From a bacterium (GTDB lineage: Bacteria; Cyanobacteriota; Vampirovibrionia; Gastranaerophilales; JBAXKC01), in contig JBAXKC010000019.1 in the NCBI GenBank assembly GCA_037137535.1, positions 1 to 53,740 on the forward strand: a stretch of DNA of 53,740 nucleotides, read 5' to 3'. Position 1 is the stretch's first letter, and every line of letters begins with the position of its first letter. This document shows positions 15,001-24,000 of this stretch, piece by piece. A program made the position numbers.

Positions 15001-18000
15001 CACTTGATGCAGTATTTGAAAAAATTCACCAGCAATTTCCCAACCTCACCTGGAATCCAATGACTGAGCCGCCCATACAAGGAAAGGAAATGATCTTTCA
15101 TTTTGCTAAAGTTTATACTGCTAATGGAAATGGATTATTAGAATTTACTATTCAGACAGAAGACAACATGGTTTATCTGCCTTTACGTGTGGATGTAAGT
15201 ATAACCGATTATCCATATAGTGAAGTTAGAAAAATGGCGAAAGAGAATAATTGGTATTTATATCATTTAAATGCTTTTGAGTACCTGGATGTGGAAGATG
15301 ATAGTGAAACGGGGAAAGATTTGATTTCTCCTATAATCTTTTAACTCATTAATTTCAAAAGCAAAAAACCACATTTTATGGAAACCGATAATTATAAAGA
15401 AAATCTCAAAGAGGCGTTGATCAACTTGAATAATGTTAATCAAACTATATTCGATTCTATTGTATCCGTTTCAATGCAGGGGGAGTTAAAAGAATGGAAC
15501 GACTCAGTACCAATTGGCGAATCCCATCAGTTTAGTTTTGAGTTATTTAAAAACAGTAGTGATACTAATATTCAGCTCCTCGTTAAGCTAATTGAAAATG
15601 TAGACGCCACTTATGAGTCTATAAAAAACATCAATTCCATTGCATTAGAAAGGTAAAATTTAAAAAATGATAACAAATCAAGAAACCAATTTTGTATACC
15701 TGTCTGACCAGATGGAGCATAAATGTCCCACAACATTCTCACAACTTACTTTTTGGTTTAAGAAACTAGGAATCGGCTATGGTATCTTATCTAACACAAA
15801 AGATCTTTGGGTTAGAGATTTTATGCCAATTCAGTATGATGCCAACAAATTCATGCAATACAAATATGACCCACAATATTTAAAAACAATCAAGGGGCAA
15901 AAGACTATCTCAGACGTTAAAGCCATCTGCGACACATTGAATATTAGTATTGCAAAAACATCAATTGTGCTAGACGGAGGTAATTTGGTGAAATCTAAAC
16001 ACAAAGCTATCATCAGTACCAGGGTTTTTAAAGATAATCATGGTTATCCCAGACAAAGCCTTATTAACGAAATTAAAAACCAGCTTCAGGTAAATCAGGT
16101 GATTTTGATTCCAGAGGAACCAGGTGATTTTACCGGACATTCTGATGGGGTTATCAGGTTTATAGATGAAAATACTGTACTATTGAATGAGTATCCTTAT
16201 GACAAAAAGTATCTTGTTTATTTTGAGTCAATATATGCAGCACTTAGAAATGCCAGATTAGACATCTGTCCAATACCGTATACCAGCTGGAAGAATAAAA
16301 GTTCAAATGATGCAACAGGTTGCTATATCAATTTTCTGGAAATTGGTAAGTATATCTTTTGTCCAGCATACGGACAACTGGAAGATCAATGGGCTTTGAT
16401 TCAATTAAAGGAGGTTTTCAAGGACAGAGAAATTATAGATATTCAATGTGCACAATTGGCTGAATACGGTGGAGTTCTAAATTGTGCCACCTGGAATATT
16501 TTAAAGTAATTATTACAAGTAGGAAATAGAATAAAAGCGCTTTTATTTAGCTATCTTTTTATTATGAAAATTGCAACCTGGAATATCGAAAGGCCTTCTG
16601 CAAACTCTAAAAGAGTCCCCTTTATTCTTAATGAGCTAAGAAGAATAAAAGCGGATATATTCATCTTGACGGAAAGCAACGAGTGTATCATTCCAAATTC
16701 TTCATACCATATTAAGAACTCTAGCCCCTTTGTTGAGTTTCAGCCACAAAAAGGGGAAGTTCGCGTAAGTATACTTTCTAGGTATTCCATTATTTCAGAG
16801 GAAGAAACTTTTCAATCAGATAAAAGCGCTTGTATAGTACTTGATACAACTATTGGAAAGCTGGCAGTATATGGAACGATTATAGGTATAACTGGAAACA
16901 GGGCTCCGGATTTTCAAAAAGACTTGGACATGATTATAAAGGATATTGACCACATCAGTAAGCTATATCCTTTATGTATCGCTGGGGATTTCAACATGTC
17001 ATTCTCTGATATTTACTATTTCACAAAGGAAGGGAAGGAAAAACTGAACGCTTGCTTTGAGCGGAACAATTTAATAAATATGACTGCGGGAGTAAAAAAT
17101 AATATCGATCATATTGTTTTACCCCAAAACCTTGCTTCTCTTCAAAACGGGCAACCAAAAGTGTGGAATAATGTAAATAAATTAGAAAAGAAAGATTGTT
17201 TGAGTGATCATCAAGGTGTCTGTGTAGAAATTAATTACTCATTATAAATAGGTGGTGATCTAAGAATATAATTTTGAATTCATAAAAGCACTTAAATTTG
17301 CTTTATCATCAAGAACCCTTCAATGGGTACCAACCGAGAGCAACAACTCCACGGTGGTAAAATGATGAGGACTTACAGTCAAAATAAAATGTAAACTCCT
17401 TATTTCTTCTTGGTTTGATTTTTTAACTTTTAAATTATCATACTATGTCAAACACGGAACACGAATTACCAAAACAAGAAATCAAGAATTCTGAAGAAAG
17501 GACATCCTTAGAAATATTAAACAGTAAGCGTATGTGGGACAAAGCCGGAACCGGATTTTCTATACCATATCAGAAACCTTCCCAAACTACCCGATCATGG
17601 AAGCATACTGACATATTAAAAGAATGTAATGAAGACTTGGGAATTAAAACTACAAGTTCAGATAGTTCTTCTTCTGATGAAAACTCAATAGAAATAACAT
17701 TTTTTAAAAAGAAACAATAAAAGTCAGACTGAGAGTATTCTAATCGGAAGAAATTCCTACTGATTGGACTCGCTTTGTAAATTAGAAATCAATGATGACA
17801 AACGCTTATATAGATCAAATATTAATTGCTGTCGGATTAAAACGCAGAATTATAGCTAAGGATCCACAATTTTATGTTTGTGACAAAACTCAATTCATCG
17901 AATATGTTTCAAAACAGTACCAACAAAATTCGGAGCTAAGGGAAATGGATGAAGTCTACAGCATGTGTGAACAAATACTGTTACATAAAGAATCTGGATT

Positions 18001-21000: not shown

Positions 21001-24000
21001 GTTTACACAGAGCTATTAGCTGGTTAAAATGTGCGGAGGATATTCAAGACAACCTTGATCTTCAATATATCAGTCTATGGATTTCATTTAACGCCTGTTA
21101 TGCGAACAACCTTAGTAAGGGAGAATTGCTTTCAGAAAGAGATAGCTTTAGCTCGTTTATAAGTAAGCTTGTTAAGCACGATAAAGAAATGCGTTTCTTT
21201 CATTTGCTCTGGAATCAGTTTTCAGGACCAGTTAGACTGCTAGTTGAAAATAAATACGTTTATAAACCTTTCTGGGAATTTCAGAGAGGGGAGATTAAAG
21301 ACTGGAAAAAACCGTTTGAAAAATCGGTAACAGATTCCATGAAATTCCTGTCGGCACAAAATGTGGGGGGATTACTGGAAGTAGTATTAGACCGCTTATA
21401 TACATTGAGGAATCAGTTAATGCATGGAGGCGCAACCTTCAAGAGCGATATCAATCGATCTCAGGTAAGGGATGGAAATAATATGCTGAAATTATTGGTG
21501 CCACTAGTTATTGAGATTATGCTAACTAATAATGATGAAGACTGGGGTGAAATTTATTATCCGGTAATTGAATAAAAACGCTTTTATAGAGCTTGTTACT
21601 TAGTTTTTCTATCAATTACCCTAAAGGAATAATTTTTATAACATAATTAAAAACGCTTTTATGGAGCAAGTTATCCATTTAAAAACAACACTTTCTTTTC
21701 GGGAAATGGAATCTGCTTCTGAATCAGCATTAATCATTAAAAAGTTTATTGAGTCCTGCATGCAATTAGATGTTTCCTTATTCGAGCCGTTTATGAATGA
21801 GGAAGATAATTTTGAGGATAAGGATAAATATCGTTTTTTAGAAAGATTGCGCAAGAGCTTCGAAGAGTATCGGCAGGATTTATTGGACGATTTTATTGTA
21901 GAACGAACTACCACTATTTGCGAAGGCTGTTCTTATGGGAAAAGGGTTGAACAATTCAAAGTCTATGAAGGGGAATCAAAAAAATTCTATGATGATTTTG
22001 GGTTTCTAATCGATGAAAATAACGGAAAGCTTATAGATATTTATCAATGTAACCAATACAAGGGATGTAAAATGGTAACGATTGGTGGCGGCAGCTCAAA
22101 TTTTCCAGAAATCACAATTAGCGAACAGGTATTAAAAGAAGAGCATAGAAAACGCTTAAACAAACAATAGCTTATTATTTTCCAATTGCTTTTCACCATC
22201 AAAGCGATATGCAACTAGTTTCCCTTCTTTTGCAACGCTATAATCTAAGCAACAAATATTATCTCGATAGATAGAAGGATTCCCATTAAGCCAATAATGA
22301 CCAAAAAATACCGGCTTGTCATTTTCAGAATAATAATTTATGTTTTTTAATAATGAAATATCAACCTGAGTTTCCGGAAGGCTTTCTAAGGGTTCAACGC
22401 TAATTTGTTTGTAATTACTTATAATTGGATCTTCCCACCATTTGATTCTGATCTCAGTTCTATGATGCCCGTCTTTATCATTGAAAGATTGTCCTTCTGG
22501 CATTTCAATTTCCTTCCCTTTTAATGTTTCTTCAATTGCTAAATTAAAGTTACTTCCTTCATCAACTGATTCGTAAATGTATTCATCATTTAAGCAGTTA
22601 TTATACAGTGGTAGTGTTTTAATATAATCAATATTGGATTGGTCTCAACAGGCATGCACTGCTCTAAATTCATTTGTTTCATAAAACAAAGGAAGAGTCT
22701 TAAACCAATTTAGGTAATCTTCATATTCGTTTTGCCTATTTTGAAACTGTTTTAGCGTTTCATAATGTTGGATGATGTTTATAATTTTATGTTTTCTTAA
22801 GTGACCTCCTTGCATTTCAGGATAATGAAAACATAAAGCGTTATACTTGTGATTTCCCATCAAAGCAATAGCGTTACCAGAATCGCGCATTGCTCTAACA
22901 ATTTGAAGTGTTTCTCTGATTTGTGGTCCTCGATCAATATAGTCTCCCACGAAGAAGGCTTTTCTTTCTGAATGCCTATACGATCCGTTAATCATCGTGT
23001 ATCCTAATTTTTTAAGCAACTCTTCTAACTTGTCGGAATAACCGTGCACATCACCAATAAAATCGAACATAAATATATTTTTCAATAACCATGAAATAAC
23101 TAATAGTTCAATTTAATCATTTTTATTTGTTTTTTAAAATATGCTATCATCGAATTGGTTATCCGAATACATCTCTAAATAAGATAAATAAAAGCACTTT
23201 TATTCAGTTACATTTTTTAACACTTTTGTAAACGTATTGTAAATAGGTGGCAATCTTCTACACGAACTTTGTGTTTCAAACCTAATTTATGCCTGAAACA
23301 AATGCCAAGGAAATTCTCCATGCCTGTCAACAATTGTTCAATAAAACAAAAGGAAAAAAAATTACACCAAGTTTACAAAAATTAATTGCCAGCTATCGCA
23401 AAAAGTTGACATCCACATTTTCGATTACCGACACCGAATCGTTAATATTCTCCTTTGTATTACTTGAAACATTTCGCGAAAGAGAAGTAAGCATTGATGA
23501 ATTAGTTAAACATTATGGAAATGATTTTTCATTGGTACCCGAATTTAATGCAGCACTTGAAAGTCTGAAAGAAAAAAAAATATTTTCACTAAGACCAGGA
23601 TCAATAAAAAGAAGAAAAGAAGTAGGGTATCGTTTTACGGTCAATCATCGAATCGTTGATGCTTTAATGAAGGGCGACTTATCTCTCATTCAAGTAGAAT
23701 CGCACCTGGTATTTTATGATATGCTCCAAGAGGTGAGTAGTATTATTGATATGCAGGATAATGATGTAATTACCTCTTGTGAACTTATCGAGGAATTAGA
23801 AGACGTTCTAAATTCAAATAGACAATTTCAGCAAGTTGATTGGCTTTTAAAACATAGTTTAACAAGGGAAGAACAAACCATGTTTTTTATTATATGCTGC
23901 GATACAGTAGCCGGGAATAATGTTACTGATATAGACGAATTATTAAAAAAGGTTTTTCATCTACCCTATGAAAGGCTTGATTATAAACGAAGTATAAAAG

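Follow-up and report, generated by a model that had tools for sequence, protein, structure and literature searches.

Two SAM-I/IV riboswitch aptamers, duplicated within a mobile defence island, are genuine, and the link between such an aptamer and the genes behind it recurs outside this genome. The window, by which we mean the whole 53,740-nt contig analysed, carries both on the plus strand among eight ORFs of the same orientation, one of which encodes a probable HEPN-domain RNase. Our best reading, which we put forward tentatively, is that the two are portable SAM-responsive leader cassettes, probably OFF switches, that drive mobile-island cargo including, by probable read-through, the HEPN gene. 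Each cassette would comprise a candidate promoter, an aptamer and an expression platform of ~50 nt; three small ORFs would be under the first; under the second would be a new 239-aa protein and, if transcription reads through as is probable, the same-strand genes that follow it as far as the HEPN RNase. A drop in SAM, for example in starvation or when a phage destroys it, would then raise the output of cargo that likely acts in defence or as toxins.

As the genome-wide survey's note had reported, the two aptamers are unique in the 2,945,445-base genome: the RF01725 matches score 60.4 bits (aptamer 1, P1-P4, 17301-17396) and 60.8 bits (aptamer 2, 18466-18561) against a gathering score of 41.1, both cover the full model (1-99), and there is no third. 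They are also the only Rfam matches above the gathering score in the window. When six aptamer sequences are aligned, 97.7% of helix cells pair and compensatory changes occur in 10 of the 22 pairs, a level reached by none of 500 shuffles, and slid controls fall to 26-47% paired. Membership in the family suggests that both bind SAM. The modules in which they lie (17247-17395 and 18412-18560) are 97% identical over 149 nt, as are their 5' parts taken separately (17247-17300 and 18412-18465), and the next 50 nt of each, up to the ATG at 17445 or 18614, are 70% identical; the duplication described in the survey's note is thus real, but its length of ~170 nt becomes ~200 nt once these 50 nt are counted. 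The 5' part of module 1 holds a candidate Bacteroidota-type -7 box (TAATTTTG, spotted by eye) and a short hairpin with the half-motif ATAAAAGCAC; motif matches fall at 17282-17297 in module 1 and 18447-18462 in module 2.

The earlier statement that no loci could be found in relatives is superseded, as four aptamer-HEPN loci have been found. At two of these (L005 and L006, on Bacteroidota-labelled MAG contigs) the same aptamer precedes the 239-aa gene and a HEPN gene, supporting a link conserved in two other genomes, and the 239-aa family stands directly behind an aptamer in all three loci that hold it, each with a HEPN homolog further on. At a third (L023), a diverged aptamer (52.8 bits, with compensatory changes) is followed by ORFs of 196, 71 and 105 aa and then by a HEPN homolog of 59% identity; at the fourth (L033), the aptamer scores 51.5 bits and has two small ORFs and then a Dcm methylase gene behind it. 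Six viral contigs also carry the aptamer in front of non-SAM genes. Because different loci have different genes directly behind the aptamer, the riboswitch appears less a dedicated regulator of HEPN than a portable leader serving mobile-element cargo of various kinds. The other RF01725 match, in an order sample of 101 genomes, is really a SAM-I riboswitch.

Behind aptamer 1 lie ORFs of 91 aa (17445-17720; low-complexity, no family), 131 aa (17792-18187; a small family of 10 clusters, mostly 208-209-aa forms with an extra N-terminus) and 57 aa (18236-18409; a hydrophobic C-terminal segment, judged by eye). Aptamer 2 is followed by the 239-aa protein (18614-19333), which defines a new two-domain family with a beta-rich N-domain, a disordered linker and a beta-alpha C-domain, and then by a 236-aa ORF (19374-20084) with an FtsK/SpoIIIE-like ATPase fold and a Walker A motif that looks degenerate by eye. 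The latter is a variable insert that L005 and L006 lack and that one metagenome contig skips. A 227-aa ORF without a family (20168-20851), the HEPN gene (20931-21575) and a Cys-rich, family-less 169-aa ORF (21661-22170) complete the series. Searches of Pfam and PADLOC were both empty for the eight ORFs from 17445 to 22170, which bears out their description as lacking any known family.

The HEPN protein, a predicted RNase of 214 aa, carries an Rx4H motif (R160-H165) that reads R-N-Q-L-M-H, and R160, N161, Q162, H165, G166 and G167 are invariant in a 30-sequence alignment. Although the window protein itself stays under the Pfam thresholds, 13 of its 30 relatives match HEPN_RiboL-PSP, and the top structural matches of its predicted model (pLDDT 90.5) are HEPN proteins (4nqf, 8jbc, 8xdj, 7ae2, 5yep and 9bj5; Z 7.7-5.4). 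Motif, family matches and modelled fold together support the HEPN identity. The fold proposed in the survey's note therefore holds, but the counts given with it (1,569 homologs, 38 sequences, 5 of 38 family matches) were not reproduced as such: our homolog search returned 667 clusters, and the family matches are those stated above.

How far the second switch reaches is the point at which the most durable alternative enters. The riboswitches may control only their immediate genes (the 91-, 131- and 57-aa ORFs and the 239-aa protein), with the HEPN gene a separate cassette under its own promoter or operator and its nearness to an aptamer due to a shared type of mobile-island hot spot, not to co-regulation; we consider this possible, if on the unlikely side. 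Aptamer 2 lies 2.3 kb from the HEPN gene, with three ORFs between. Immediately upstream of the HEPN ATG is an AT-rich block common to L005, L006 and L011, and because the last of these has no riboswitch, though its HEPN protein is 82% identical, the gene may have a promoter of its own. Moreover, the palindromic motif ATAAAAGCGCTTTTAT has 9 matches against 1.3 expected, clustered at intergenic sites from 16531 to 23203, and its copies flank the HEPN gene: two lie just downstream (21572 and 21647), a related half-copy occupies 20908-20927, and in one metagenome variant the motif stands directly before position 20931. The shared block and the flanking palindromes suggest independent control of HEPN. 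Of the 53 HEPN loci whose upstream DNA extends 1.5 kb or more, 50 have no aptamer; the window, L005/L006 and L023 each have a different set of genes separating aptamer from HEPN; and at L033 the aptamer lies 2.8 kb downstream of the HEPN homolog, in the same island.

Against a separate cassette stands the proximity itself: of 92 loci of this single HEPN family, 4 have an aptamer within 4 kb, as does the window, yet in none of the 150 other genomes of the phylum sample (151 with this one, G000) was one found above the cut-off. The same-strand ORFs are also spaced just 40-85 nt apart, the gap between the 240-aa gene and HEPN in L005 is just 60 nt, and, in agreement with the earlier note, 16400-23400 holds no plus-strand terminator-like site, so that none intervenes between aptamer 2 and HEPN. 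It is from the continuity of this arrangement that we infer co-transcription with HEPN. What had been proposed as SAM-aptamer control of a putative RNase module is accordingly borne out for genuine aptamers and a recurring link, whereas regulation of HEPN itself stays conjectural, given the signs of a possible separate promoter and the many aptamer-less loci.

The preferred reading of read-through cassettes also makes a claim about direction. Folds and duplex analysis place in platform 1 (17397-17444) a pyrimidine-rich anti-P1/P4 segment and then a hairpin abutting the AUG, and in platform 2 (18562-18613) an anti-P1 segment with a start-proximal hairpin, almost identical in L005 and L006. The most likely logic would be that of a translational OFF switch, in which the pyrimidine-rich segment is complementary to the P1 3' strand and the 5' side of P4, and the hairpin ending right at the AUG has a 5' arm complementary to the P1 5' strand and J1/2. 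With SAM bound, P1 and P4 would close and the start-proximal hairpin would form; as SAM falls, the downstream elements would capture both P1 strands and open the start region, an opening that would matter in a lineage whose translation starts on unstructured leaders without a Shine-Dalgarno sequence. In seven of seven long-platform leaders, the best partner of P1-5'/J1-2 falls on the 5' arm of the start hairpin or next to it, 24-31 nt upstream of the AUG, although single-sequence tests of this pairing give modest support (1 to 66 of 500 shuffles do equally well). Five short-platform viral leaders pair the P3 loop with the tail, ending at or over the AUG in the canonical design, which argues that the ancestral logic of the lineage is OFF. 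Thermodynamic folding showed no switch: whether or not P1 is enforced, the start hairpin forms and the AUG region is unpaired with much the same probability (0.19 against 0.24 for the second riboswitch; 0.66 against 0.40 for the first).

The presence of that hairpin in both predicted states is what lends some appeal to the opposite direction, which we nevertheless regard as unlikely. As SAM-ON switches, the leaders would, with SAM bound, free a ~34-nt A/U-rich linker as a ribosome landing site and, without it, lock that linker in a long anti-P1 helix, so that cargo production is confined to times of ample SAM, as might suit, for instance, the island's SAM-dependent methylation. Freedom of the linker is indeed what differs between the states, the L033 aptamer precedes a methylase that uses SAM, and the window island has a Dcm gene of its own. 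The viral relatives, however, show an OFF design; the complementarity of the hairpin arm in all seven leaders fits an anti-sequestor and is needless for an ON switch; and the SAM riboswitch classes known and characterised to date all switch expression off.

The setting is as the survey's note described it, an integrase-bearing defence island, with Pfam matches to an integrase, AAA_13, HNH, PD-(D/E)XK, three WYL/WCX proteins, Z1/AIPR/DUF4420, Vsr, McrBC and Dcm. Downstream lie, on the minus strand, a metallophosphoesterase gene split into ORFs of 115 and 146 aa (22156-23085), which in L005 and L011 is a single 329-aa ORF next to HEPN, and, on the plus strand, a WYL/WCX regulator (25132-26124) with a 69-70% identical homolog that in L006 and L011 adjoins the HEPN gene. 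The whole contig is island, and its tetranucleotide fit is the second-lowest of 29 large contigs, so the host assignment rests on binning; the closest loci carry a Bacteroidota label. Neighbours in all loci are of defence or toxin type (Fic, Zeta, WYL, GmrSD, DUF2779, Dcm), and it is from such company that a defence purpose for the cargo is drawn. The recurring pairing hints that expression of some mobile defence genes is adjusted to how much SAM the cell has, and a SAM-depletion tripwire is an attractive, if hypothetical, idea. It seems to us improbable that the cargo, instead of acting against phages, is made up of genes for mobile-element maintenance, such as addiction or toxin-antitoxin modules, whose dose the SAM switch couples to host growth state. 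HEPN proteins are common toxin-antitoxin toxins and the structural matches include HEPN/MNT toxins; Fic and Zeta are toxin genes; PADLOC matches none of the controlled ORFs to a known defence family; and prophage-like contigs place the aptamer before moron-like genes, one of the FGase family and one weakly NADAR-like. Yet no antitoxin-like partner (MNT, HTH) adjoins HEPN in the window, every locus is dense in restriction and abortive-infection genes, and the contrast with abortive-infection defence is partly semantic. That the aptamers have no regulatory role, being relics in decay that a duplication brought along, as the recency of the two window copies might suggest, is very hard to credit when aptamer 2 and its platform are almost invariant across the window, L005 and L006, where the proteins are 73-83% identical (17-27% diverged) and the promoter region differs, when diverged copies show compensatory changes, and when every copy scores well over the gathering cut-off.

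Set beside canonical SAM-I/IV riboswitches (RF01725), the island copies share the aptamer core and P1-P4 architecture (51-61 bits against the cut-off of 41.1), but behind window-type copies methionine/SAM genes give way to family-less ORFs, a HEPN operon, a Dcm gene or prophage accessory genes. The canonical pairing of P3 loop and 3' tail at the start codon, kept in the five viral copies, has no convincing counterpart in window-type copies, which carry instead the ~50-nt platform with its anti-P1 segment and start-proximal hairpin. The host's own metK leader (G000:C9:82680-82783), before the SAM synthetase gene, shares ligand and clan (CL00012) with them but is of a different class, SAM-I (RF00162, 90.8 bits), with a clear hairpin and U7 terminator; because the host uses this design, the island switches were not derived from it, which supports regarding them as foreign to the host's own SAM regulation. 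With HEPN toxins and defence HEPN proteins (HEPN/MNT pairs, Csm6, AbiV, ApeA) the window protein shares the alpha-helical fold, the invariant Rx4H and residence in a defence island, but in the window no MNT or recognisable antitoxin adjoins it and PADLOC has no match. The separately encoded, beta-rich 239-aa protein loosely recalls the N-terminal domain of ApeA, described as beta-rich (PMC3710099), a likeness without demonstrated homology. A parallel in layout is the abiF motif, or RCd22, the leader RNA of the AbiF HEPN RNase gene in prophages of Clostridioides difficile, which holds down production of the toxic protein in a 'riboswitch-like' manner (PMC12373285). It is not a known metabolite aptamer; it works through a strong terminator and, much like an antitoxin RNA, also binds the protein. 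The window leader differs in having a SAM aptamer, no terminator that we could see and a HEPN gene that is not the first behind it, and the HEPN subfamilies differ too (Abi_2/AbiD-F there, RiboL-PSP/Apea-like here); what the two share is a structured 5' leader before a mobile-element HEPN RNase with an R-N-x-x-x-H motif (PMC12373285).

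The window carries two plus-strand aptamers of the SAM-I/IV family (RF01725), RS1 at 17301-17396 and RS2 at 18466-18561, which score 60.4 and 60.8 bits against a gathering score of 41.1 and each span model positions 1-99 of 99. They are the only matches above the gathering score in an Rfam scan of the whole window and the only RF01725 matches in their own assembly (2,945,445 bases in 81 contigs, 100% complete); the two scans return identical values, in agreement with the genome-wide survey's note, which had described two such aptamers and no third. The stretches that make up the core of the SAM pocket, CAUCAAGA, CCAACC, GGUGG and GAUG, are all present and consensus-aligned in the cmscan alignments. 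Judged by sequence, the aptamer belongs to SAM-I/IV, and SAM binding and gene control are predicted from that membership. The survey had further placed the aptamers in duplicated modules of about 170 nt, of which the duplication stands and the size does not: a direct repeat (17247-17395 and 18412-18560) shows 97% identity across 149 nt, and beyond it 50 nt more at 70% identity lead up to the ATGs at 17445 and 18614. The aptamer and its leader are a real and conserved feature.

Behind RS1 lie ORFs of 91, 131 and 57 aa, and behind RS2 ORFs of 239, 236, 227, 214 and 169 aa separated by gaps of 40-85 nt, all on the plus strand. The survey's description of these genes as lacking a known family is upheld, as none of the eight (17445-22170) matches Pfam or PADLOC; in PADLOC-DB v2 the eight yield nothing at E≤0.001, where the nearby IetA-like AAA protein (23289) and the WYL proteins do match. 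Equally, the absence of terminator-like sites on the plus strand was found to extend over 16400-23400. The 131-aa ORF is a member of a 10-cluster family. A reading of the 91-aa and 131-aa ORFs as halves of one broken gene, with homologs of 208-209 aa, was rejected because the extra N-terminus of those homologs is unlike the 91-aa ORF and stand-alone forms of 129 aa exist.

The setting is a mobile defence island, and Pfam searches on 53 window ORFs bear out the survey's account of it as integrase-bearing. A tyrosine integrase stands at the left end of the window, PAD_porph and Exo_endo_phos enzymes lie immediately upstream of leader module 1, and the island further holds an AAA_13 ATPase, HNH and PD-(D/E)XK nucleases, DUF2779, a HATPase_c_3/Z1/DUF4420/AIPR set, Vsr, McrBC and a Dcm methylase. 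The IetA-like AAA ATPase (23289-24959) is matched by NCBIfam at 3.6e-23, below that model's own cut-off, and by PADLOC IetA at 1.6e-25. Pfam also identifies three WYL/WCX regulators (13489-14394, 25132-26124 and 48822-49829). The minus strand carries a PrpE/ApaH/Pnkp-like metallophosphoesterase in two pieces, as ORFs of 115 and 146 aa (22156-22503 and 22645-23085); in two other loci, L005 and L011, a single ORF of 329 aa occupies the same place beside the 214-aa gene at 20931-21575 (hereafter the HEPN gene), and the window copy is probably a disrupted gene.

The host itself regulates SAM synthesis differently. Its genome contains one SAM-I riboswitch (RF00162, 90.8 bits, G000:C9:82680-82783), with a clear hairpin and U7 terminator, which precedes a 423-aa ORF whose N-terminus is SAM synthetase-like by eye; host metK is thus under a different switch class than the island aptamers. 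The loci checked in two relatives (L003 and L004) also carry SAM-I. Across 151 sampled genomes of the phylum, RF01725 exceeds its cut-off in the window's genome alone. The only other match among 101 genomes of the order (41.6 bits, in G088) was rejected, SAM-I scoring 51.6. Since the host uses SAM-I and RF01725 was seen in this one genome across the phylum sample, the island aptamers are not copies of the host regulator. The window, which makes up all of contig C19, has a GC content of 0.321 (genome, 0.314) and a tetranucleotide correlation with the genome of 0.98, the second lowest among 29 contigs of at least 30 kb; its composition is compatible with the bin, though no housekeeping gene anchors it there.

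The survey had reported that the link could not be followed in relatives because no loci were found. Such loci do exist: in four of them, L005, L006, L023 and L033, an aptamer is linked to the same genes or to the same HEPN family. For the 239-aa protein directly behind RS2 (18614-19333), only five clusters of homologs (67-94% identity) were obtained. An alignment search of genome contigs located its homologs at two loci, L005 and L006, in metagenome-assembled genomes labelled Bacteroidota/Bacteroidetes; with the homolog clusters as query, metagenome and viral contigs gave no match, and, of all the loci fetched, the family profile matches none but the window, L005 and L006. In both, an RF01725 aptamer (56.9 and 56.1 bits) directly precedes a 240-aa homolog, followed by a 214-aa protein 82-83% identical to the window HEPN. 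Aptamer and expression platform (the stretch between aptamer and AUG) are nearly letter-identical in the four copies (RS1, RS2, L005 and L006), while the promoter-side DNA differs and the proteins have diverged. Neither locus contains the FtsK-like ORF (19374-20084) or the 227-aa ORF (20168-20851). In the freshwater metagenome run X2, one contig has 54 other nucleotides in place of the DNA between 19317 and 20055 and so also skips the FtsK-like ORF, which shows that operon content varies between strains. From these absences we take the conserved core to be the aptamer, the 239-aa gene and the HEPN gene. Two homologs at 94% and 91% identity, P0001 and P0188, lie on one 65-kb contig, which may represent a second full island.

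A wider search with the HEPN family (667 clusters) yielded 80 metagenome and 7 viral loci. These, together with the fetched loci L003-L006 and L008-L010 (94 sources in all, 508 kb), were scanned with a model made from the four aptamers, which added L023 and L033 to L005 and L006; Rfam confirms the additions at 52.8 and 51.5 bits. In L023 the aptamer is followed by ORFs of 196, 71 and 105 aa and then by a HEPN homolog (59% identity). The first of these ORFs (L023 1811-2401, 196 aa) has a C-terminal Cys/His pattern that resembles a CHC2-type zinc finger by eye, and has no Pfam match. In L033 the aptamer (7438-7530) lies 2.8 kb downstream of the HEPN homolog and ahead of two small ORFs (57/45 aa and 66 aa) and a Dcm-type C5 DNA methylase, in a unit that runs to 8627; it could be a SAM switch on a methylase unit of restriction-modification (R-M) type. 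The L033 island also holds WYL, an ECF sigma factor, DUF7663, HEPN, DUF2779 and DUF4268.

Among 92 HEPN loci, 53 offer at least 1.5 kb of upstream DNA, and an aptamer lies upstream on the same strand in three of those 53. L011, whose HEPN protein is 82% identical, has GmrSD genes upstream instead of an aptamer, and the 3.6-kb HEPN loci of three genomes from another family of the phylum also contain no aptamer. With these counts the association of aptamer and HEPN gene is patchy, yet it greatly exceeds the background, which is 0 in 150 genomes. In two of the three other-family loci, the HEPN homolog (44-45% identical) has a tRNA gene right beside it (L008 2266-2339 and L009 1307-1380), the usual kind of site for island integration.

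Whether the switch extends its control to the HEPN gene is a separate matter. A block directly upstream of the HEPN start is common to L005, L006 and the aptamer-less L011. In addition, a 16-nt palindromic motif, ATAAAAGCGCTTTTAT, occurs nine times in the window with at most 3 mismatches (16531-16546, 16645-16660, 16820-16835, 17282-17297, 18447-18462, 21572-21587, 21647-21662, 23188-23203 and 32743-32758) against 1.3 expected, a count that none of 100 shuffles reaches. Eight of the nine copies fall within the 6.7 kb of 16531-23203, mostly in intergenic DNA ahead of ORFs, including the 5' end of both riboswitch leaders and positions just downstream of the HEPN gene; in one metagenome variant the motif stands directly before 20931. 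Its exact core is found only 12 times genome-wide, with both strands counted. The motif may be an operator, for example for a WYL regulator, or a cassette boundary. The shared upstream block and the motif copies around HEPN gene and leaders weaken the case for riboswitch control of the HEPN gene. One cassette heads an operon that probably includes this predicted RNase. The neighbours of the HEPN gene in the window, L005 and L011 are a minus-strand metallophosphoesterase and a WYL regulator, and in L006 a WYL regulator only; homologs 69-70% identical to the window's WYL/WCX protein at 25132 adjoin the HEPN gene in L006 and L011. Another 5' motif, AATAGGTGG, with a third copy at 23242, was dropped as a specific signal, its 29 genome-wide occurrences being near a rough chance estimate.

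The aptamer is not confined to HEPN loci. A strict core pattern retrieved five viral contigs with six RF01725 aptamers of 51-61 bits. One of them, L099, has two aptamers in tandem (1995-2095 and 2807-2915), ahead of an FGase-family gene and a 135-aa gene; the pair comes directly after an amidase gene, a site typical of prophage morons, and near a host-type PBP gene. Elsewhere the aptamer stands ahead of another FGase-family gene (L101, 1219-1323), a weak NADAR-like gene (L102, E 3.4e-06, below cut-off) and, after umuDC, a tiny ORF (L100). A relaxed pattern produced more than 120 stretches on viral contigs, nearly all of them chance: one of 20 passes Rfam and one of 80 loci passes R1, the covariance model from RS1, RS2, L005 and L006, which is narrow for having been built on four near-identical sequences (L033 scores 33.7 bits with R1 against 51.5 with Rfam). 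The single true relaxed-pattern match, L114, has its aptamer at 1453-1563, ahead of a homolog of the 135-aa protein; these proteins of 135-137 aa behind the aptamers of L099 and L114 belong to no family. In two freshwater metagenome runs in which the window is present, the summed contig depth over the aptamer (~114-152 in X1, ~61-66 in X2) exceeds that beside it (26-60 and 10-24, respectively), and at 17305 and 17396 some contigs run into or out of the aptamer from different flanking DNA. Excess depth and alternative flanks together indicate that the aptamer has contexts beyond this island. The aptamer lineage is a feature of mobile elements.

Comparison of six aptamers supports the RNA structure: in an alignment that was fitted to the model, and in which four of six rows are near-identical, 97.7% of cells are paired and 10 of 22 pairs change on both sides. 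The two-sided changes fall in helices P2, distal P3 and P4 and in one pair of P1. None of 500 shuffles matches this pairing, and slid partners leave 26-47% paired. What differs among copies is the platform, of which there are two types. In the short platform (five viral copies) the AUG follows the tail by ~5-12 nt, and the P3 loop pairs with the tail over 7-9 bp (-5.7 to -7.1 kcal/mol) in a duplex that ends at or over the AUG; the same pairing is made by differing sequences, and is a classical OFF design. The peripheral pseudoknot of P3 loop and 3' tail is reportedly dispensable for ligand binding. The long platform, carried by RS1, RS2, L005, L006, L023, L033 and L100, comprises ~50 nt with a pyrimidine-rich segment complementary to the 3' strand of P1 and the 5' strand of P4, then a hairpin that ends at the AUG. 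Its best P3-tail duplexes reach -1.1 to -3.4 kcal/mol in RS1, RS2, L023 and L033, by a simple duplex scan that is not decisive.

How the long-platform leaders respond to SAM can be approached through the 5' strand of P1 with the P1/P2 junction (P1-5'/J1-2). In seven of seven long-platform leaders its best partner lies 24-31 nt ahead of the AUG, over or beside the 5' arm of the start hairpin, and per sequence 1 to 66 of 500 shuffles equal it. On the predicted pairings, this would be the geometry of a sequestor and an anti-sequestor. With SAM bound, P1 would shut, the hairpin arm would be left free and the start would be hidden by the hairpin; with SAM absent, downstream elements would capture both strands of P1 and the start would be exposed. 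To our knowledge, the known SAM riboswitch classes are OFF switches. The hairpin-arm geometry, the OFF-type pairing in the short-platform copies and this behaviour of known classes lead us to favour OFF switches, with reasonable though not high confidence. That the leaders are ON switches strikes us as unlikely, and some other mechanism, for example a Rho-dependent one, takes the rest of our confidence. In equilibrium folding the start hairpin forms whether or not P1 is enforced, and the accessibility of the AUG barely shifts, a result that does not separate ON from OFF. The platforms contain no intrinsic terminator, by eye or by scan.

For the product of 20931-21575, the survey's claim of a HEPN fold and an R-N-Q-L-x-H motif is borne out. 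Within R160-N-Q-L-M-H165, a motif of the Rx4-6H form, R160, N161, Q162 and H165 are invariant in 30 sequences of 41-92% identity, as is an N-terminal R24/H26/R27 cluster. The window protein itself has no Pfam match even at E≤1; of its 30 relatives, 13 match HEPN_RiboL-PSP (PF18735, best 3.8e-07) and 7 match HEPN_Apea (PF18739), and NCBI annotates one homolog as a HEPN domain-containing protein. The structure model (pLDDT 90.5) is all-alpha, and of 48,161 chains compared, most of the 16 best carry titles that name HEPN proteins or HEPN homologues, with Z values of 7.7-5.4 that are middling for helical proteins (best 4nqf_B, Z 7.7, rmsd 4.1, 123 aligned; 8jbc_A, Z 7.3; 8xdj_A, Z 7.0). The family profile found no match among PDB sequences at E≤1. 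Motif and model point to a member of the HEPN superfamily and a predicted RNase, closest to PF18735 and PF18739 among Pfam models.

The 239-aa protein consists of a beta-rich domain (1-115), a disordered linker (117-138) and a beta-alpha domain (143-239; model pLDDT 82.4, pTM 0.46). Pfam, NCBIfam and PADLOC return no match and PHROG a single one at 0.0086; 62 remote relatives were found, and none of 17 matches Pfam. No Foldseek match in the PDB reached E≤0.001, the Atlas yielded no usable match, and a wide VIA search returned a best Z of 5.8 among scattered unrelated folds. It is a new two-domain family, so that the region defines at least one new protein family tied to the switch. The ORF at 19374-20084 has an FtsK/SpoIIIE-like fold (TM 0.73 to clusters carrying PF01580) and weak matches to phrog_1358 (6.5e-05) and EssC (0.0011), with none in Pfam; its Walker A site is without GxxGxGK[ST] by eye and looks lost.

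The best-supported overall reading is that these RNAs are portable SAM-responsive leader cassettes, probably of the OFF type, for genes that mobile islands and prophages carry as cargo. A more specific proposal, which we consider improbable as a whole, would make the riboswitch an infection sensor, or "tripwire," of a defence module that guards the R-M systems and Dcm methylase of the island. Phage SAM lyases or hydrolases, which would destroy SAM to disarm methylation-dependent immunity, would lower SAM; low SAM would open the leader and release the HEPN RNase and its partners, leading to abortive infection, and the sensor would spread, as a portable cassette, through Bacteroidota islands and prophages. 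The sensing of phage-driven SAM loss is a plausible proposal. Returning to the portable-cassette reading, a SAM-I/IV lineage is found on defence islands and prophage-like contigs, before genes without a link to SAM synthesis and repeatedly near one HEPN family. If the switches work, a metabolite sensor has been taken over by mobile elements to set the timing of accessory or defence genes, and the region would offer a testable route to whether bacteria detect phage-driven SAM depletion.

SAM riboswitches are feedback regulators of methionine and SAM metabolism. Judged from search results alone, we found no paper that ties a SAM riboswitch to HEPN proteins, SAM lyase or defence islands. Variants of SAM-I/SAM-IV are typical of metagenome sequences, according to Weinberg et al. 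(2010; PMC2864571). The nearest functional precedent that we found is the abiF-motif leader RNA, which in prophages of C. difficile lies ahead of the HEPN RNase AbiF (PMC12373285) and, unlike the leaders of the window, is not a known metabolite aptamer. Set against known SAM-I/IV riboswitches, the platform, the mobile-element lifestyle and the gene set are new.
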